A DNA stretch of 24,000 nt from an uncultured Actinobacillus sp. (GTDB lineage: Bacteria > Pseudomonadota > Gammaproteobacteria > Enterobacterales > Pasteurellaceae): positions 118,993 through 142,992 of the forward strand of contig CAUTMS010000001.1 of the NCBI GenBank assembly GCA_963539805.1. Direction: 5' to 3'. The notes beneath the pieces were generated by a model. That model had not been told where the DNA came from. It was given only the letters and a program-made list of their open reading frames with translations, and made no database searches. This document shows positions 8,300-18,168 of the stretch, in pieces. Position 1 is the stretch's first letter. Each line of letters starts with the position of its first letter. A program made the position numbers and the translations under genes.

Positions 8300-9262
8300 A
8301 TGAAAAAATTATTCAAACTCTCTCTTGTTACTGGTATGGCTTTAGCGTCGCTAAATGTTCATGCCGAAGAAAAATTCATCACTATCGGGACCGGTGGTCA
8401 AACCGGCGTGTATTATGTGGTGGGTCAGTCTATTTGTCAGTTAGTGAATCGTGATACGGCGAAAACCGGCGTGAAATGTAATGCGCCTTCAACCGGCGCT
8501 TCCGTGGCGAATCTGAACGCCATTGCCGATCATCAAATGGACATGGGAATTGCCCAATCCGACTGGCAATATCACGCCTATAACGGTTCAAGTTCTTTTG
8601 AAGGTAAGAAAAACGAAAAATTACGTGCCGTTTTCTCGCTTCATCCGGAACCGTTTACATTAATGGTGCGTGATGATTCCGGTATTAAATCTTTTGACGA
8701 TCTGAAAGGCAAACGTGTGAATGTGGGCGATCCGGGCTCGGGCACCCGCGCCACCATGAATGTTATTCTGGCGGCTAAAGGCTGGACGGATAAGGATTTC
8801 AAAGTGGCTTCCGAATTAAAACCGGCGGAAATGGCCTCTGTAATGTGTGATAACAATCTGGACGCGATTACCTATAATGTGGGCCATCCGAACGGGGCGC
8901 TGAAAGAAGCGGCGGCTTCCTGCGATTCTCATTTGGTGCCGGTAACGGGCGAAGCCATCGATAAATTGGTGGCGGATCATTCTTACTATGCGAAAGCCGT
9001 GATTCCGGGCGAATTATACAAAGGCACTGACAATCCGGTGGAAACTTTCGGGGTGTATGCGACGTTGGTGACCTCCGAAGATGTGGATGCGGATAAAGTT
9101 TACGCGGTAGTGAAAGCGGTGTTCGATAATTTTGACCGTTTTAAACGCTTGCATCCGGCGTTTGCCAACCTGAAACAGGAAGAGATGATCACCAACGCCT
9201 TATCCGCACCTTTGCATGAAGGCGCCGTCCGTTATTACAAGGAACGTGGTTGGATTAAATAA
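8300..9262 (+). CDS. TAXI-family TRAP transporter solute receptor (periplasmic binding protein)
   Basis: Signal peptide MKKLFKLSLVTGMALASLNVHA followed by ITIGTGGQTGVYYVVG, typical of TAXI receptors. The start is set at the ATG at 8300, with GGAG at 8288-8291. Confidence 0.85.
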   Translation: MKKLFKLSLVTGMALASLNVHAEEKFITIGTGGQTGVYYVVGQSICQLVNRDTAKTGVKCNAPSTGASVANLNAIADHQMDMGIAQSDWQYHAYNGSSSFEGKKNEKLRAVFSLHPEPFTLMVRDDSGIKSFDDLKGKRVNVGDPGSGTRATMNVILAAKGWTDKDFKVASELKPAEMASVMCDNNLDAITYNVGHPNGALKEAAASCDSHLVPVTGEAIDKLVADHSYYAKAVIPGELYKGTDNPVETFGVYATLVTSEDVDADKVYAVVKAVFDNFDRFKRLHPAFANLKQEEMITNALSAPLHEGAVRYYKERGWIK

Positions 9263-12585: not shown

Positions 12586-12857
12586 ATGAAAAACTTTGCG
12601 AAATTTACCCTGTGGACGGGGGTGTTGTTAACGGCGTCGGTGCAGGCGAAAGGCTGGACGTACGATGATTTCCGCGCATGGTAACGGAATTGCCGAGTGA
12701 ACTTGCCGGTATGAACTGCCGCAATTATCCGGATGTAATCACTTACCGTGGCGATAATCCGAACGATATGTTCAAAGAAGGCGAGAACGAATACGAGATT
12801 GAGACCCATTTGGTGTCAGTCACCGGCGCAGAAACTGATAAGCTGATATGGAGATGA
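12586..12857 (+). pseudogene. Small secreted protein gene apparently split by a 1-nt frameshift (hand-translated ORFs 12586-12684 and 12678-12857)
   Basis: ORF1 reads MKNFAKFTLWTGVLLTASVQAKGWTYDDFRAW-stop, a signal peptide with VQA-K cleavage. ORF2 in the next frame reads MVTELPSELAGMNCRNYPDVITYRGDNPNDMFKEGENEYEIETHLVSVTGAETDKLIWR-stop and has no RBS of its own. Both fall below the ORF-track cutoff. Function unknown. Confidence 0.4.
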
Positions 12858-12858
12858 A

Positions 12859-13479
12859 ATGATGATCAAAAAAGTCGTAGAAGAATATCTAAATCAAATT
12901 CAGGTAGAAAAATATTCAATCATTATTATCAATCCTCTTGATGAGATATCTATTATTTCCAATCAGCCACAAGCCTGGGAACAGGATTTCATTAAAATGA
13001 AACTGCATTTGAGAAGTAATATAGTTTTAAAAGCGAAAGAAAAAATAACGCCGTTCTGGTGGTCGGCGGAAAGTGCGGATAATGAAGTATGTAGAAAATT
13101 AGTGGAAAAATATAAAATTCGCTGCGGAATTACCTTTGTCATGAAGATAAAATGTGAGCATGTTATTTTTACCTTATATTTTAATGAAAACGACCCAAAT
13201 TTTTTTAATTTATATCAAAAAGAAAAACACAGAATTTTGTTTGAGATCCTTAGTCTGTTTGAGGAAAATTATAAACGAGAGCCAATAGTTAGTCTCACTG
13301 GTAGAGAGAAAGAGGTGTTAGACCTGCTAAAAATAGGGAAGACATATTCGGAAATAGGAATGATTTTAGGGGTGACGGAAAGGACGGTCAGATTCCATAT
13401 CACCAATGTATTGGCTAAACTGGATGTTACTTCTGTGAAATATGCTATTGTGAAAGCTATGGTTGAAGGTATTATCTGA
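12859..13479 (+). CDS. LuxR-family transcriptional regulator: quorum-sensing-type N-terminal ligand-binding-like domain plus C-terminal GerE/LuxR HTH
   Basis: The C-terminus LTGREKEVLDLLKIGKTYSEIGMILGVTERTVRFHITNVLAKL is a LuxR-type HTH. It carries the invariant E150/L154/G160 spacing (TraR E178/L182/G188). The N-terminus keeps the spacing W40-x3-F44-x8-S53-N54-x13-W68, which equals TraR W57-Y61-D70-P71-W85. Confidence 0.8.
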   Translation: MMIKKVVEEYLNQIQVEKYSIIIINPLDEISIISNQPQAWEQDFIKMKLHLRSNIVLKAKEKITPFWWSAESADNEVCRKLVEKYKIRCGITFVMKIKCEHVIFTLYFNENDPNFFNLYQKEKHRILFEILSLFEENYKREPIVSLTGREKEVLDLLKIGKTYSEIGMILGVTERTVRFHITNVLAKLDVTSVKYAIVKAMVEGII

Positions 13480-13537: not shown

Positions 13538-13984
13538 TTACTTTTTAAAATTTATGATTATTGCCCCGATAATAACAAAAATTACACCGGTAACGCGAGC
13601 AACGGATATTGAATGTACCGGTACGTTAAGTAAACCGAATTTATCAATTACTAATGCTGCGATAACCTGCCCTGCTACCACTAAAACCAGAAAATTAGCA
13701 GCGCCGATAAGCGGTATGGCGAATGTCCCAATTACAAGAAATGCAACACCCATAGCCCCACCTAACCATGCCCACCACGGAGCGCTTAAGATTGTGTCGT
13801 TTGGTAACGGAGCCTTGAAGATAAGAATAAGAAACACCATGAGAACGATACTTACCAGAGCGGAAACCAGAGATGCCGTTACCGGGTTTCCCAGAATTTT
13901 CGATAATTCCGCGTTAGCGCCTCCCTGTATAGGTAATGCAACCCCTGCCAGAAAGGCACAGATTAAACTAATAACGTATTGCAT
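13538..13984 (-). CDS. Small DMT-superfamily inner-membrane transporter (YdcZ/DUF606-like); putative exporter
   Basis: 148 aa and entirely hydrophobic, with 4-5 predicted helices. The N-terminus LAGVALPIQGGANAELSKILGNPVTASLVS resembles the YdcZ family. The start is set at the ATG at 13984, with AAGGA upstream, 11 nt after the HAD stop. Confidence 0.55.
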   Translation of the reverse strand: MQYVISLICAFLAGVALPIQGGANAELSKILGNPVTASLVSALVSIVLMVFLILIFKAPLPNDTILSAPWWAWLGGAMGVAFLVIGTFAIPLIGAANFLVLVVAGQVIAALVIDKFGLLNVPVHSISVARVTGVIFVIIGAIIINFKK

Positions 13985-13995
13985 ATTTCTAATCC

Positions 13996-14688
13996 TTACC
14001 ATAAGCTGGAATTTAATAAACATCTATCAACCCGAAGGATAATATCTTTTGTAATATCAGTGAATTTATTTACCATGCATTTAACACCAGTATTTATCAT
14101 TTCTTCCCGCTGAAAATTATGCGGCATTGATGCAGGAACACCAATAAAACCGGTATTTAATGCTTTACACACTTCAGCTACTCGGTTTATATCATCAATG
14201 AACACAACTTCATCAAAGTTTAATTTGAATTCTTCTTTTACGATTTCAAATACACCGGGGCGGAAAGCATTGATATCAATATAAGGCTTATCTTTGTCAA
14301 AATATTTCGCATAGGGTGCTAAAAAACGATCAAAACTATACTCTTTATTTCGCCCACCATAACAGGTTAGTTTTGCTCCCGTGCTATTTAATAACGCTAA
14401 TGTTGATTCAATACCAGCGCGAACCTGTACTGGATGATCTTTAATATACTGTTCTCGTATTTTAAAGAAATCTTTAATGACTTTTTCACCGGAGTAAGGA
14501 AGTTTACAGGCAAGTGCCAGATTATGACCGGCTGTGATTTGAGGTGAACCCCATACGCTACGTTCAATTAACGGCGTATATTCTACACCCAGAGATTCAA
14601 CAAATATTTTTATTGCCGGACTGTATGTGTCATTTAGCACAACTCCGTCACTATCAATAGCAAAAAGTTTAATTTTTTTCAATTTCAT
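13996..14688 (-). CDS. HAD-superfamily hydrolase (putative phosphatase)
   Basis: Motif I FAIDSDGVV has the DxD nucleophile pair at D12/D14, and motif IV is VVFIDDIN. 230 aa. AAGGA RBS, 11 nt after the ketosynthase stop. Confidence 0.7.
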   Translation of the reverse strand: MKLKKIKLFAIDSDGVVLNDTYSPAIKIFVESLGVEYTPLIERSVWGSPQITAGHNLALACKLPYSGEKVIKDFFKIREQYIKDHPVQVRAGIESTLALLNSTGAKLTCYGGRNKEYSFDRFLAPYAKYFDKDKPYIDINAFRPGVFEIVKEEFKLNFDEVVFIDDINRVAEVCKALNTGFIGVPASMPHNFQREEMINTGVKCMVNKFTDITKDIILRVDRCLLNSSLW

Positions 14689-14699
14689 AGAATTATCCT

Positions 14700-15917
14700 T
14701 TATTCATATTTAGAAAAGATTAAGGCGGCATTTTGGCCACCAAATCCAACAGAAGTACTGAGTACATTTTTCACATGAATATCACTGATCGTATTAGTGG
14801 CAATTTTAACTTTTATTTCTTTATCAATGTTTCTTAAACCTGCAACTGGTGGAATTTTATTATTTACGATTTTTAATATCGAGAACACGGCCTCTATTGC
14901 ACCTGAGGCTGCCAAACTATGTCCTGTAACCCCCTTTGTTGACGTCACATAAGCACTTTTACCAAAAAAATCATATAGAACTTTTCCCTCAATACGATCA
15001 TTAAGTAGTGTTGATGTGCCATGTGCATTGATACACTGAATATCGGTAGATTCCAGTACGGCATCGTTTAAGGCTGCACAGATGGATACTGAAAGCCCAG
15101 AACCATTAGGTGATGGTGATGTAATATGATATGAATCATTAGCTGAACCATATCCAGCTACTGAAGCATAAATTTTCGCTTTACGATCTAAAGCCGATGT
15201 TTCTTTCTCTAGGACAAGCATTGCTGCACCCTCTGAAATAACAAAGCCATCTCTTTCATTATCAAAGGGCCGTGATGAATAGGCTAGATTAGTATTTTTA
15301 GAAAGGGCTCCGATCTTTGTAAAGGAGGATACAACCAGCGGCGTTATAGGTGCTTCACTTCCGCCAGCAAGAACAATATCACATATCCCATTTTCTATGA
15401 GATATTTGCCCATCCCAATAGAATCAGTTCCAGATGCACATGCCGTTCCGATAAGATAAGTTGGTCCTTTTATACCGAGTTCAATAGCAATATTTCCAGT
15501 TGCCATACTTCCCATTGTAGAAAGTAAATATAACGAACCTATAGTGCCAACTCCTTCGTTATATGCTCTTTTGTTTAATTTCTCAACAGAAGTGACACCT
15601 GCCAGTGAATTACCTAAAATGACCCCGACTTTAACGGTTTTATTATCAATATCTAACTTTGCGTCTTCAATGGCTTTTTTTGCTGCATAGAGAGCATATT
15701 GAATAAACGGATCAATTCTCCATATCAGTGATTTATTCAAGCAATCTGAGGGAGTAAAATTTTTGATAGGGCAGGACCATGATACGTCAAGAGTATTCAA
15801 ACGATTATCAATGATCGTCATACTTTTTCCTTTAATCAGATTTTCCCAACACTCGTCAGGAGTAAGGCCGGCAGAAGAAATAATTCCCATACCGGTAACA
15901 ACAACTTTATGTTTCAT
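14700..15917 (-). CDS. Beta-ketoacyl-ACP synthase, FabF/FabB-like (KAS I/II type)
   Basis: The N-terminus is KVVVTGMGIISSAG. The catalytic triad context is intact: GTACASG (Cys), NAHGTST (His) and TGHSLAASG (His). The start is set at the ATG at 15917, with AAAGGTG upstream. Confidence 0.85.
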   Translation of the reverse strand: MKHKVVVTGMGIISSAGLTPDECWENLIKGKSMTIIDNRLNTLDVSWSCPIKNFTPSDCLNKSLIWRIDPFIQYALYAAKKAIEDAKLDIDNKTVKVGVILGNSLAGVTSVEKLNKRAYNEGVGTIGSLYLLSTMGSMATGNIAIELGIKGPTYLIGTACASGTDSIGMGKYLIENGICDIVLAGGSEAPITPLVVSSFTKIGALSKNTNLAYSSRPFDNERDGFVISEGAAMLVLEKETSALDRKAKIYASVAGYGSANDSYHITSPSPNGSGLSVSICAALNDAVLESTDIQCINAHGTSTLLNDRIEGKVLYDFFGKSAYVTSTKGVTGHSLAASGAIEAVFSILKIVNNKIPPVAGLRNIDKEIKVKIATNTISDIHVKNVLSTSVGFGGQNAALIFSKYE

Positions 15918-15935
15918 GTTATGCACCTTTCAATC

Positions 15936-16157
15936 CTATTTTTTCAGCTCTTTTACTCTCTTACTTATTGTTTGTAATGTGTCATTGTTAACTAAAGACA
16001 AACTACCTTCGGATAAACCAAATTCTCGTTCAATTTCTATTTGAAATTCAACTATGCATATTGAATCTAGTCCTATGCTTTCGAGTGGTTCGTCATTTTT
16101 AATATTATTTTCTGACACACCAAAAGTTTCAGTTAATATTGTTTCTAATTTTTCCAT
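15936..16157 (-). CDS. Acyl carrier protein (dedicated, discrete)
   Basis: 73 aa and acidic. It has the phosphopantetheine attachment motif GLDSI (Ser32). Its start overlaps the upstream gene's stop by 13 nt. Confidence 0.8.
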   Translation of the reverse strand: MEKLETILTETFGVSENNIKNDEPLESIGLDSICIVEFQIEIEREFGLSEGSLSLVNNDTLQTISKRVKELKK

Positions 16158-17053
16158 ATATTCCTCTCGATCTTTAATTTTAAACTTGCCATAATAGATT
16201 CATTTTGAAGTACATTGACATTAAAAAAATATATGTCTTTATATAAAGATACCTTTTGAATTTTAACAATTGCAGGTATATTGATTTCGACGTAATTAAA
16301 AAAATCTCCATCAATTTCAGTAGGTATGAAGTATCCTATATTTTCATGCATCTTCGATAAATAGTAATAGCATAATTGTTTCGCAGCCTCAGTTAAGTTC
16401 ATCCCCGTTATATGATCCTGTTCATGATCATTAAATGATTTATTATTTTTATTAATGTTAATAATAGTACTGATATAAGGGGGAGTATCATGTAAACGTG
16501 TCAAAATCACATTCCTTGTTGAGTTATAGCATACGCTCTCAGGTTGTAAATTCTCTTTTAATTCTATTTGTTGAGGACTGGTTTGAATATTTTTGCGGAT
16601 TAATTTATAGCTGGCAGAACTCACATATGTAACATTTATTTTTATTTCACTTATTACTCTGTCATTTTTACTGAAAATAATGTTAAATACATTTTTTGTC
16701 ATTTTTTGGTTAATAGAATTTTTAGTAAAAATATCTACTTTAATATTATTGGAATTTCTCAATGGGGTTATATTATAATTAATAGACCAATTTCTAAGTA
16801 GAAATTTTGAATCTAAACATATACCAAATTCTTTATGAGACAAATATGTTTCAATCTGCCGAGCGCACTCTAATAAATAAAGAGGATTTATAAACCCTAT
16901 TGAAGCGTTAAAATCGGAATAAAATGGGTGATCATTTATTACACGACAATCGGATTGAAATCTTTTATTTGAAACTCGTAAAATATTTTCGATAAACACT
17001 TCACTATCATTTAATTTATGAGTGTATAATTTCAAATCTTTTAAATTTTCCAC
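16145..17053 (-). CDS. AfsA-like protein (two A-factor-biosynthesis hotdog repeats); predicted beta-ketoacyl-ACP:DHAP acyltransferase / butenolide synthase
   Basis: 302 aa, the same size as AfsA/ScbA/MmfL. Repeat 1 has DHPFY (41-45) and NPLYLLECARQ (56-66). Repeat 2 has NDHEQDHITGMNLTEAAKQ (208-226). These match the AfsA repeat signatures DHPFF...DPLL..EA.RQ and NDHVPGMLLLEAARQ as I recall them. GTG start at 17053 with AAGGAGG 5 nt upstream. Confidence 0.7.
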   Translation of the reverse strand: MENLKDLKLYTHKLNDSEVFIENILRVSNKRFQSDCRVINDHPFYSDFNASIGFINPLYLLECARQIETYLSHKEFGICLDSKFLLRNWSINYNITPLRNSNNIKVDIFTKNSINQKMTKNVFNIIFSKNDRVISEIKINVTYVSSASYKLIRKNIQTSPQQIELKENLQPESVCYNSTRNVILTRLHDTPPYISTIININKNNKSFNDHEQDHITGMNLTEAAKQLCYYYLSKMHENIGYFIPTEIDGDFFNYVEINIPAIVKIQKVSLYKDIYFFNVNVLQNESIMASLKLKIERNIWKN

Positions 17054-17099
17054 AGTTCCTCCTTTTAGTTTTATTAAATACCTATTAATGAGTAATGAA

Positions 17100-17119
17100 A
17101 ACTGTCAGTTTTGACAGGT
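17100..17119 (-). promoter_or_regulatory. lux-box-like dyad upstream of the AfsA-like operon
   Basis: The minus strand reads ACCTGTCAAAACTGACAGTT. It contains a perfect inverted repeat, CTGTCA (17102-17107) and TGACAG (17112-17117), and fits the CTG-N10-CAG architecture. It is identical at 13/20 positions to the V. fischeri lux box ACCTGTAGGATCGTACAGGT as I recall it. A 5/6 match to the -10 hexamer, TTTAAT (17078-17073), places the dyad centre near -43. Confidence 0.5.
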
Positions 17120-17186
17120 TAGACAGTAAAGAGTATTTATAAACCTTAGCATGAGAATGTTTGTGCATTTTGATGATTACATGTAA

Positions 17187-17426
17187 GGAACGGATAATCC
17201 GGTGGAAACTTTCGGGGTTTACGCCACGTTGGTGACCTCGGAAGAGGTGCCGGCGGATAAAGTGTATGCCGTGGTAAAGGCGGTTTTTGACAATTTCGAT
17301 CGTTTCAAACGCACTCACCCGGCGTTCGCTCATCTTAGCAAGGAAGAGATGATTCATAATGCTTTGTCGGCGCCGTTACATGAGGGCGCGGCACGTTATT
17401 ATCGCGAACAGGGTTGGCTAAAATAA
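17187..17426 (+). pseudogene. 3' remnant (last 79 codons) of a second TAXI-family TRAP solute-receptor gene
   Basis: [21 protein letters not shown]...YYREQGWLK-stop is collinear with residues encoded at 9023-9262 of the intact receptor gene. 63 of 74 residues are identical over the track ORF. An in-frame TAA sits at 17184-17186 and no 5' part is present. Confidence 0.85.
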
Positions 17427-17464
17427 TTCTGACGGTATAATGTCAGGCATTTTGTGGTCGCAAT

Positions 17465-17490
17465 CGTGTTTTTTCCGACGAAAAAACACG
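17465..17490 (+). terminator. Hairpin terminator downstream of the TAXI remnant
   Basis: CGTGTTTTTT (17465-17474) pairs with AAAAAACACG (17481-17490) across the loop CCGACG, followed by ATTTTACTTTTT. Confidence 0.6.
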
Positions 17491-17508
17491 ATTTTACTTT
17501 TTATTATT

Positions 17509-18168
17509 ATGGCATTAATTGAATACAATCCGCCTCAAACACTTTATTTGAACGTTGTTTATCACGATAATCACATGCTTGTGCTGAATAAACCCAGCGG
17601 GCTGCTGTCCGTACCGGGTAATCAGCCGCAGTATTATGACAGCGCCATGAGCCGGGTGAAAGAAAAATACGGATTTTGCGAACCCGCTCACCGCCTGGAT
17701 ATGGCAACCAGCGGCATTATTCTGTTCGCCATGAGCAAACTGGCGGACAGCGAGCTGAAACGTCAGTTTCGCGAACGGCAAACGAAAAAATTTTATCAGG
17801 CGTTGGTGTGGGGACATGTTAAACCGGACAACGGTACGGTAAATTTGCCGCTGATTTGCGATTGGGAAAACCGCCCGCGCCAGCGCATCGATTTCAATTC
17901 GGGCAAAAGTGCGGTCACAAAATTTGAAGTTTTAGAACGTTTGCCGAATAACAGCACGCGGGTGAAGTTAACGCCGATTACCGGTCGTTCCCATCAGTTG
18001 CGGCTGCATATGCTGGCGTTAGGACATCCTATTTTAGGCGATAAGTTTTATGCTCCTCCGCAGGCGAAAGCCATGGCGCCGCGTTTGTATCTGCATGCGG
18101 AAAGTTTAACCGTTACGCATCCGGTTACGGGGGAATCCATGACCTTTTATTGTCCTGCGGATTTTTAA
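17509..18168 (+). CDS. rluA: 23S rRNA/tRNA pseudouridine synthase RluA
   Basis: Close collinear match to E. coli RluA: NPPQ, VLNKPSGLLSVPG, HRLDMATSG, ELKRQFRER, LPLICDWENRP, PITGRSHQLRLHMLALGHPILGD, ending PADF. The start is set at the ATG at 17509. Confidence 0.9.
   Translation: MALIEYNPPQTLYLNVVYHDNHMLVLNKPSGLLSVPGNQPQYYDSAMSRVKEKYGFCEPAHRLDMATSGIILFAMSKLADSELKRQFRERQTKKFYQALVWGHVKPDNGTVNLPLICDWENRPRQRIDFNSGKSAVTKFEVLERLPNNSTRVKLTPITGRSHQLRLHMLALGHPILGDKFYAPPQAKAMAPRLYLHAESLTVTHPVTGESMTFYCPADF
17907..17915 (+). repeat. Uptake signal sequence core (inside rluA)
   Basis: Exact AAGTGCGGT. Confidence 0.9.

Follow-up and report, generated by a model that had tools for sequence, protein, structure and literature searches.

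A lux-box-like dyad upstream of an AfsA-type synthase operon in Pasteurellaceae: a candidate operator of a LuxR-family regulator

To our knowledge, LuxR-type receptors are almost always discussed together with N-acyl-homoserine lactones (AHLs), and AfsA-type signals together with the TetR-type receptors of actinomycetes. The present work deals with a 20-bp inverted repeat (dyad) found on the minus strand of a 24-kb stretch of DNA from an uncultured Actinobacillus sp. (Pasteurellaceae; contig CAUTMS010000001.1, positions 118,993 to 142,992), the whole of which is referred to here as the window. The dyad precedes an operon headed by an AfsA-like gene, in an islet that also encodes a LuxR-family regulator. 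The original prediction, made from the letters of this one sequence, was that the dyad is a lux-type box located near -43 of the operon promoter, and that it may be part of a positive autoinduction loop. Here, the dyad, its promoter, the regulator, and the related islands of other bacteria were analyzed.

The islet and its genes

The islet, located at approximately 12.86-17.2 kb of the window, has a G+C content of 27-40%, against approximately 48% for the window. Its genes and the features of the operon promoter are the following:

16145-17053, minus strand: AfsA-like double-hotdog synthase, 302 aa, first gene of the operon (Pfam AfsA, 100 bits, in two stretches)
15936-16157, minus strand: acyl carrier protein (ACP), 73 aa (Pfam PP-binding)
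14700-15926, minus strand: beta-ketoacyl-ACP synthase (KAS), 405-408 aa (Pfam ketoacyl-synt N and C domains)
13996-14688, minus strand: HAD-family hydrolase, 230 aa, putative butenolide-phosphate phosphatase (weak Pfam HAD matches)
13538-14023, minus strand: DMT/YdcZ-type inner-membrane exporter, last gene of the operon (Pfam DMT_YdcZ, 129 bits)
12859-13479, plus strand: LuxR-family receptor of the quorum-sensing (QS) type, 206 aa, convergent with the operon (Pfam Autoind_bind and GerE)
17100-17119, minus strand: putative lux-box-like operator, 20 bp, ACCTGTCAAAACTGACAGTT (from the letters and from conservation)
17096-17101, minus strand: weak -35-like hexamer TTTTCA, four of six positions of TTGACA, abutting the dyad and 17 nt from the -10
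17073-17078, minus strand: -10-like hexamer TTTAAT, five of six positions, 21 nt past the 20-mer
17066, minus strand: predicted transcription start, approximately 7 nt after the -10 (from promoter geometry only)
17058-17064, minus strand: Shine-Dalgarno sequence AAGGAGG, 4 nt before the GTG start (17053-17051)

The AfsA-like protein is 26% identical over its full length to an AfsA-related protein of Streptomyces, with which it shares the motifs LLECARQxETY and EAA(K/R)Q. The catalytic E-x-x-R motif of AfsA is found in both repeats, with an R to K change in the second, and the ECARQ and EAAKQ of the window align with the ECARQ and EAARQ of the Streptomyces homologue; the essential AfsA residues are those given in PMC13454427. 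In the plasmid database, the sole AfsA homologues are ScbA/BarX of Streptomyces, at approximately 25% identity. Among the proteins of the operon, the HAD hydrolase is the best conserved, with 67-81% identity in the enteric, Vibrio, and Serratia loci described below, and its putative phosphatase role is drawn by analogy from the AfsA pathway. The exporter gene is called as 148 aa in the orthologous loci. A BprA-type reductase is missing from the operon. A gene for a TetR-family receptor (ArpA/ScbR) was found neither in the islet nor in the orthologous islands, where the LuxR-family gene fills the regulator slot, and no LuxI-type (Autoind_synth) gene is listed among the neighbors within 8-9 kb at any locus.

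The dyad and the geometry of the promoter

The 20-mer ACCTGTCAAAACTGACAGTT was read directly from the letters at 17119-17100 (minus strand), and its sequence, coordinates, and perfect CTGTCA/TGACAG arms are exactly those of the original prediction. Within it lies a perfect 16-bp palindrome, CTGTCA-AAAC-TGACAG (17117-17102, minus strand), with arms that extend to seven of eight matching positions (ACCTGTCA versus AACTGTCA); the minus-strand context is tttactgtctaACCTGTCAAAACTGACAGTTttcattactcattaataggtaTTTAATaaaactaaAAGGAGGaactGTG. With its perfect 6-bp arms, ACCTGTCAAAACTGACAGTT has the form of a lux-type box, that is, a dyad of 18-22 bp in the frame CTG-N10-CAG, and a single mismatch separates it from the 12 specified positions of the Vibrio fischeri lux-box frame, ACCTGT-N8-ACAGGT. 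Even with two mismatches allowed, the window contains only one match to CTGTCA-N4-TGACAG, where 0.21 are expected. Perfect 6-4-6 inverted repeats occur 13 times in the window, and shuffling of the 133-nt AT-rich region gives a perfect repeat of this kind with P of approximately 0.07 and the frame CTG-N10-CAG with P of approximately 0.007. Taken in one sequence alone, the dyad is suggestive and only modestly unlikely to arise by chance; its significance comes from conservation across loci and not from the odds in a single sequence.

The -10-like TTTAAT, the AAGGAGG, and the GTG start all lie where they had been placed, and 17054-17201 is indeed the only sizeable non-coding stretch of the islet. 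No consensus sigma-70 promoter was detected on the minus strand of this intergenic region upstream of afsA. The earlier statement that no -35 can be recognized was, nonetheless, too strong for the window, given that TTTTCA has four of six matches and a spacing of 17 nt and is, therefore, weak but not absent. When +1 is set 7 nt after the -10, the center of the dyad is located at -43.5 in the window and at -42.5 in the enteric promoters, in agreement with the proposed position near -43 as far as geometry goes, while the exact value hinges on the predicted transcription start.

Conservation of the promoter in related islands

Homologues of AfsA and of the regulator were traced to their contigs and the upstream regions were compared. 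The module of afsA, ACP, KAS, HAD, and transporter genes, with a convergent luxR-family gene of approximately 205 aa, recurs in Pasteurellaceae, Phytobacter, Klebsiella, Citrobacter, Escherichia, Salmonella, Serratia fonticola, a Serratia metagenome-assembled genome (MAG), Vibrio mimicus, and several metagenome contigs, with identities to the window proteins that drop to 38% for AfsA and 40% for LuxR. Bisgaard Taxon 10/6, to which the host of the window is close, has this islet inserted at the same site. A scan of genome contigs gave just three loci.

The pattern CTGTC-N6-GACAG is kept in all 14 distinct homologous afsA promoters, one of which has a single arm substitution. Variants of the box include CCTGTCAGAAYTGACAGTT, CCTGTCAGAAGCGACAGTT, AACTGTCATAAACGACAGTT, and ACCTGTCAAAACTGCCAGCT, and the most distant member carries the one-arm variant CTGTCAAAACTGCCAG. 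Across 16 distinct promoter variants from eight genera, 11 columns are invariant. Pairs of homologous afsA promoters have, on average, an identity of 0.88 in the dyad, against 0.33 in the 40 nt upstream of it and 0.43 in the spacer, which is the selective conservation of half-sites over flanks that a lux-type box should have. Conservation is limited to the dyad, the C that precedes it, the trailing TT, and the AAAG..GTTTAAT region. A count of the words shared between the window and the orthologues, made with no prior on the motif, gives the same picture, with CCTGTCA in 12, GACAGTT in 11, and TTTAAT in 10 of 14 promoters; as a 6-mer, TTTAAT ranks third in this respect, behind the dyad arms. 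Every orthologous promoter has a -10-like hexamer (TTTAAT, TTTACT, TATAAA, TACTAA, or TATCCT) at 22-23 nt from the dyad, whereas the start codon lies at a variable distance; the GTG start in the context ACTGTG is kept. At the position of the TTTTCA of the window, the enteric orthologues match a -35 in only about two of six positions, which, as far as promoter sequence can tell, fits a promoter that needs an activator.

The same alignment bears on the possibility that the dyad acts as nucleic acid, either as a hairpin (a terminator, an insulator, or an RNA element of the 5' region) or as an attachment (att) or recombination site of the islet. A terminator scan does list the dyad, as a 6-bp stem followed by TTTT, and the region folds somewhat better than its shuffles (z = -2.2). 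The stem is, nonetheless, just 6 bp long with three G-C pairs, the z value is only -2.2, no minus-strand gene ends upstream, and the dyad lies upstream of the predicted transcription start; a search of the region in Rfam gave nothing relevant. No pair is changed on both sides in the 16 variants, and four of the five departures break pairing; given this lack of compensatory covariation, what is conserved is the sequence and not the pairing, and a structural hairpin is not favored. A recombination site was set aside on the grounds that the distance of the dyad is fixed to the -10 and not to the island ends, and that the dyad is duplicated before a porin gene, as described below. Explanations of this kind are barely credible.

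Other sequence elements were observed close to the dyad or resembling it. The half-site-like ACTGTCT at 17127-17121 (minus strand), 9 nt upstream of the dyad, was discounted as an extra half-site given that it is specific to the window and absent even from Bisgaard Taxon 10/6, as well as from the other orthologues. A 22-nt direct repeat with 20 of 22 matching positions links 17127-17148, just upstream of the dyad, to 16878-16899 within afsA (TAAAGAGTATTTATAAACCTTA / TAAAGAGGATTTATAAACCCTA). In several orthologues, an element resembling TTTATAAAT is found again at 15-30 nt upstream of the dyad, and could be an A+T tract similar to an UP element, a second site, or a product of chance. In one metagenomic lineage (L014, 7872-8741; L015; L022), afsA is split by a frameshift into open reading frames (ORFs) of 72 and 246 aa, although both the box (CTGTCAGAAACGACAG) and luxR remain intact. 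A pattern scan of IMG/VR returned two exact matches to CCTGTCARAAYTGACAGTT in GC-rich viral contigs (L036, 7174-7192; L037, 4603-4621); neither afsA nor luxR is found around them, and they represent chance matches or else boxes of unrelated LuxR-type regulators. Near-matches in transketolase genes (TTGTCACTGATGACAG) were rejected as boxes, being conserved coding sequence and not promoters.

Co-occurrence of the box with the regulator

The box is present at every locus with a luxR orthologue. Searches that started from LuxR homologues led in three of three cases, S. fonticola, Salmonella diarizonae, and the 40%-identical protein of the Serratia MAG, to the operon and the box. A cognate regulator with Autoind_bind and GerE helix-turn-helix domains is encoded alongside the box and co-inherited with it, as is the case for lux-type boxes.

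Two sister clusters, L027 (7968-15185) and L030 (734-7749), carry afsA, ACP, KAS, HAD, aldo/keto reductase, MFS, and PHP genes with a convergent regulator of the LysR type, and their AfsA proteins are 27-28% identical to that of the window. A Gilliamella locus (L003, 9863-14443; AfsA 30% identical) has afsA, an MFS transporter gene, and a LysR gene. Neither a lux-type dyad nor a LuxR gene was found in these three loci, and the type of regulator and the operator have, therefore, been swapped together.

A second copy of the box, followed by 22 nt and TTTAAT, is found before a gene of the Porin_4 family in three islands, where it lies between the island integrase and afsA. These boxes (CTGTCGAAACTGACAG or CTGTCAGAACTGACAG) are located at:

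L002, 8375-8390: Klebsiella sp. I138, NZ_CP180447
L019, 1642-1657: metagenome contig
L038, 7067-7082: Escherichia coli A38, NZ_CP028738

This shows the box and its -10 to be, as judged from their arrangement, a portable promoter-operator unit. The porin gene is likely a second member of the regulon and possibly has a role in the passage of the signal.

These observations are also relevant for the reading of the dyad as an SOS box, CTGT-N8-ACAG, at which the LexA of the host would repress the operon until DNA damage induces it. The consensus of LexA sites is TACTGTAT...ACAGTA, with a TA-rich core and TA flanks (TACTGTATATATATACAGTA). The dyad does conform to the minimal gammaproteobacterial motif CTGT-N8-ACAG, the similarity between lux boxes and LexA sites has long been noted, and the islands are mobile, with integrases, insertion at tRNA-Asn, and type IV secretion system (T4SS) neighbors, all of which counts to some extent against a lux-type operator. 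However, positions C5 and G12 are invariant (CTGTC...GACAG), and both the core (CAAAACTG / CAGAATTG) and the flanks, which are CC and TT, depart from the LexA consensus. The box is lost exactly where LysR replaces LuxR in the sister clusters, and it is predicted to lie at -42.5 and not over the -10 or +1. Regulation by LexA is, for these reasons, very improbable.

The regulator and its ligand pocket

Both the Autoind_bind and the GerE domains of the regulator score above the Pfam cut-offs. Its best sequence match in the PDB is QscR (residues 31-205, E = 1e-12), and its AlphaFold2 model (predicted local distance difference test, pLDDT, of 87) retrieves in Foldseek exclusively QscR, TraR, LasR, RhlR, SdiA, YenR, and CviR. 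Judged from sequence comparison and the predicted structure, the regulator is a bona fide LuxR receptor of the QS type. Its recognition helix, ERTVRFHxxN, is invariant across 24 members of the clade, matching the invariant CTGTC/GACAG half-sites.

The pocket residues were mapped through the QscR alignment onto the clade alignment, with TraR numbering. The tryptophans W57 and W85 of TraR are retained in the clade as W40 and W68, while Y61 is replaced by an invariant phenylalanine (F44) and D70 by an invariant serine (S53). The position of P71 is variable, and G90 tentatively corresponds to G113. The regulator, therefore, lacks the canonical set of six AHL-pocket residues (W57, Y61, D70, P71, W85, and G113 of TraR). 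The D70 of TraR forms a hydrogen bond with the amide of the AHL. Because of the changes of D70 to serine and of Y61 to phenylalanine, the regulator is unlikely to be an AHL sensor, and its predicted pocket fits a non-AHL ligand, plausibly the butenolide-like product of the operon.

The proposal that the dyad is a lux-type operator of the LuxR-family regulator of the islet is supported by the conservation, the spacing, the co-occurrence, the re-use of the module, and the type of receptor, and the dyad can be regarded with considerable confidence as the operator of the receptor encoded at 12859-13479, to the extent that comparative sequence evidence can establish it.

Proposed autoinduction model

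In the proposed mechanism, a dimer of the receptor would bind CCTGTCA-N4-TGACAGTT, centered at approximately -43 and abutting the weak -35. In the manner of LuxR at the lux box, the bound receptor would recruit RNA polymerase to the promoter with TTTAAT, and this recruitment would switch on the afsA-ACP-KAS-HAD-exporter operon. KAS and ACP would yield a beta-ketoacyl-ACP, AfsA would condense this product with dihydroxyacetone phosphate, and the HAD protein would dephosphorylate the resulting compound, giving an exported butenolide or a molecule similar to a gamma-butyrolactone. This product would bind to the altered pocket of the receptor (Asp70 to Ser, Tyr61 to Phe), closing a positive autoinduction loop. 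The complete positive-feedback model is given a probability of roughly 0.6 on this comparative evidence, and within it we infer the transcription start, the binding, the activating sign of the regulation, and the identity of the ligand. The operon product is put forward as the probable ligand because receptor and operon are strictly co-inherited, and a butenolide, not a reduced butyrolactone, is the simplest guess for its nature given that the operon has no BprA-type reductase; a lactone of the 2-acyl-3-hydroxymethyl-butenolide type would be expected. The very weak -35 of most orthologues and the placement at -42.5 favor activation over repression, on the strength of predicted promoter geometry.

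There are also observations that weigh against the model. The -35-like TTTTCA of the window matches four of six positions at the ideal spacing of 17 nt, and some basal transcription of this promoter independent of an activator is, therefore, possible. The orthologous islands share ancestry, which means that the 14 promoters are not fully independent samples. No box with up to two mismatches is found upstream of luxR at any locus; autoregulation of luxR through the box was rejected on these grounds, and the loop, if there is one, acts only through the synthase.

The logic of the circuit could also be inverted, as in EsaR, ExpR, and SmaR, with the ligand-free LuxR protein bound to the dyad and released by the operon product. 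It would then repress by occluding the -35, or activate at low signal only, and the outcome would be negative feedback or homeostasis. The convergent arrangement of receptor and synthase genes speaks for such a mechanism and against positive feedback, being a hallmark of the ligand-released group (topology discussed in PMC13454427). The ligand-binding domain of the regulator resembles that of YenR, which belongs to this group. Binding to the dyad could also block RNA polymerase, given that it would take place beside or over the -35, which in the window has four of six matches at perfect spacing. However, with approximately two of six matches for the -35 of the enteric orthologues, the activator-free promoter would be very weak there. 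In addition, the repressing operators of this group overlap the -10 or sit between the -35 and the -10, and are not known to be located at -42.5. The best full-length match in sequence and structure is QscR, which binds DNA in its ligand-bound form. On balance, an inverted logic is considered unlikely.

The same operator and regulator could, alternatively, serve a solo-type receptor that senses a host or foreign signal, in which case the operon would be a biosynthetic output, for example an antimicrobial or a host-directed butenolide, with no self-induction. The conserved targets are only the biosynthetic operon and, in some islands, the porin gene, and no downstream regulon is visible. Biosynthetic clusters linked to LuxR are common (see PMC5872303), and in Chromobacterium a cluster with AfsA and HAD genes is an output of AHL quorum sensing (PMC12114271). 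Nonetheless, the receptor is inherited strictly together with the operon, in a single mobile unit that spans families, as is typical of a cognate synthase and receptor, and the pocket has an invariant serine instead of the aspartate that binds the AHL amide. The absence of listed LuxI-type genes from the neighborhoods described above also counts against a solo-type receptor, which we judge improbable.

The positive-feedback model can be extended to the whole set of islands. In this extension, the dyad would be the cis-element of a self-contained, mobile, and undescribed QS circuit of Gammaproteobacteria. An AfsA pathway of the actinomycete type (KAS-ACP-AfsA-HAD, in some islands together with a split transketolase) would make an autoinducer similar to a butenolide or a gamma-butyrolactone, to be sensed by a dedicated proteobacterial LuxR receptor with a W-F-S-x-W-G pocket. 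The synthase operon would be autoinduced through a lux-type box, as would the porin gene in some islands, and the circuit would have spread on tRNA-Asn/integrase islands and T4SS elements among E. coli, Klebsiella, Citrobacter, Salmonella, Serratia, Vibrio, and Pasteurellaceae. This extension is put forward tentatively, at slightly under even odds.

Distribution, mobility, and junctions of the islands

Among complete E. coli genomes, 19 of 5,426 (approximately 0.35%) carry the module, in all cases on the chromosome. In E. coli BCE049 (NZ_CP042250; L039, 4988-6496), it is located on a tyrosine-integrase island beside tRNA-Asn. It adjoins VirB/Trb type IV secretion genes in S. diarizonae (L034, 1-8689), and TraN/TraU genes and insertion sequence (IS) elements in V. 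mimicus (L009, 1-6508). The Pasteurellaceae islet ends with the DMT/YdcZ exporter gene (13538-14023) and has no transketolase, while the enteric, Vibrio, and Serratia islands have an MFS transporter and a transketolase split into N and Pyr halves (L010, 11066-13871). This difference may mean that another sugar-phosphate acceptor is used or that another product is made.

At the right junction of the islet (17202-17426, plus strand) lies a 74-codon C-terminal remnant of a gene for a TAXI TRAP-transporter binding protein, with 85% amino acid and 76% nucleotide identity to the C-terminus of an intact paralogue at 9038-9259. At the left junction (12587-12857, plus strand), fragmentary ORFs of normal G+C content reach the ATG of luxR. 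Since the islet does not supply luxR with an upstream region of its own, transcription of this gene may start in host sequence. A perfect hairpin with a 14-bp stem (AATCGTGTTTTTTC / GAAAAAACACGATT), flanked on both sides by T-runs, is found at 17462-17493, between the TAXI remnant and an RluA-type pseudouridine synthase gene. It falls within the longest rluA ORF (17440-18168), the true start of which is probably downstream of the hairpin; the orthologue is called as 219 aa.

The circuit is apparently an undescribed LuxR-type cell-to-cell signaling system that is mobile among gut- and animal-associated bacteria. The module is found on mobile islands in genera of clinical and veterinary relevance. 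A reporter of the afsA promoter together with the 205-aa regulator would give a biosensor with which the signal could be purified, and the 16-bp consensus permits the prediction of regulons in complete genomes.

Comparison with known systems

A full-text literature search found no description of a circuit with an AfsA synthase and a LuxR-type receptor in Gammaproteobacteria, and three variants of the box sequence had no occurrence in the searchable literature. By term search, AfsA goes unmentioned in two surveys of LuxR solos and LuxR-linked biosynthetic gene clusters. AfsA homologues of Gammaproteobacteria, for example of Citrobacter and Dickeya, have been catalogued, though not characterized, with no link to LuxR (PMC8209734).

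At the level of sequence, the dyad is a lux-type box. Like the V. fischeri lux box (ACCTGTAGGATCGTACAGGT, centered at -42.5), it is a 20-bp dyad in the CTG-N10-CAG frame, with 11 of 12 outer positions identical, placed beside or over a weak predicted -35 at approximately 22 nt from the -10-like hexamer, and its putative target is likewise a signal-synthase operon accompanied by a two-domain LuxR-type receptor. The inner half-sites differ, being CTGTCA/TGACAG here and CTGTAG/GTACAG in V. fischeri, as does the right flank, TT instead of GG. The operon encodes AfsA, ACP, KAS, and HAD proteins in place of LuxI, and the Asp70 and Tyr61 that bind AHLs are missing from the receptor. The luxR gene faces the operon from its far end, in convergent orientation, and is not divergent from the box.

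The enteric box CCCTGTCAGAATTGACAGTT is identical in 16 of 20 positions, including the CCCTGT start and the CAGTT end, to the cep box of cepI in Burkholderia cenocepacia, CCCTGTAAGAGTTACCAGTT (PMC1766932). CepR footprints the cep box, the position of which overlaps the -35 of the synthase gene, and lux-type boxes 'generally overlap the -35' (PMC1766932). However, the cep box is an imperfect repeat that serves a receptor of octanoyl-homoserine lactone (C8-HSL), whereas the arms found here are perfect and the receptor is non-canonical. The 16-bp palindrome and CTG-N10-CAG geometry are also shared with the CviR box of Chromobacterium, CTGNCCNNNNGGNCAG (cited in PMC12114271), which has the inner bases NCC/GGN instead of TCA/TGA. 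The partner of CviR, an AHL receptor, is CviI, and although a cluster with AfsA-related and HAD genes is strongly induced by QS in C. subtsugae (PMC12114271), this cluster is an output and not the cognate synthase.

With the actinobacterial systems AfsA/ArpA and ScbA/ScbR, the islet has in common a homologous AfsA synthase with both catalytic motifs and a dedicated receptor gene adjacent to it. In those systems, the receptor is a TetR-family repressor that acts on an autoregulatory element (ARE) and is released by the signal, whereas here it is of the LuxR type with a lux-type box. The nearest actinobacterial parallel is a LuxR-like activator of scbA in Rhodococcus, reported in 2026 (PMC13454427). 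The megaplasmid cluster of Ruegeria pomeroyi DSS-3, of the gamma-butyrolactone-like type, is likewise a proteobacterial and horizontally acquired cluster with an AfsA domain, and its transcription depends on afsA by 4- to 60-fold, indicating positive self-regulation (PMC7426152) and giving a proteobacterial precedent for an AfsA cluster that activates itself. It differs in its gene set and regulators, with LuxR unmentioned and the operator undefined, and in its link to a killing phenotype (PMC7426152).

The circuit is not a member of the canonical LuxI/LuxR AHL family, given that neither its synthase nor its receptor pocket is of that family, and it is not a member of the actinobacterial family of AfsA with TetR-type receptors, given the type of its receptor. 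The nearest functional analogues are PpyS/PluR (pyrones) and DarABC/PauR (dialkylresorcinols) of Photorhabdus, which also combine a LuxR receptor with a substituted AHL pocket and a non-LuxI signal pathway based on a ketosynthase (see PMC4414361). The present system differs from these in the AfsA hotdog, KAS, ACP, and HAD chemistry, in the W-F-S-x-W-G pocket motif, in its presence on mobile islands across several families, and in the location of the operator at the synthase promoter. If the model is correct, a lux-type operator, an AfsA operon, and an Asp-substituted LuxR receptor would join the AHL/LuxR and AfsA/TetR paradigms, and would make up a third class of endogenous non-AHL LuxR circuits, after the pyrones and dialkylresorcinols of Photorhabdus.

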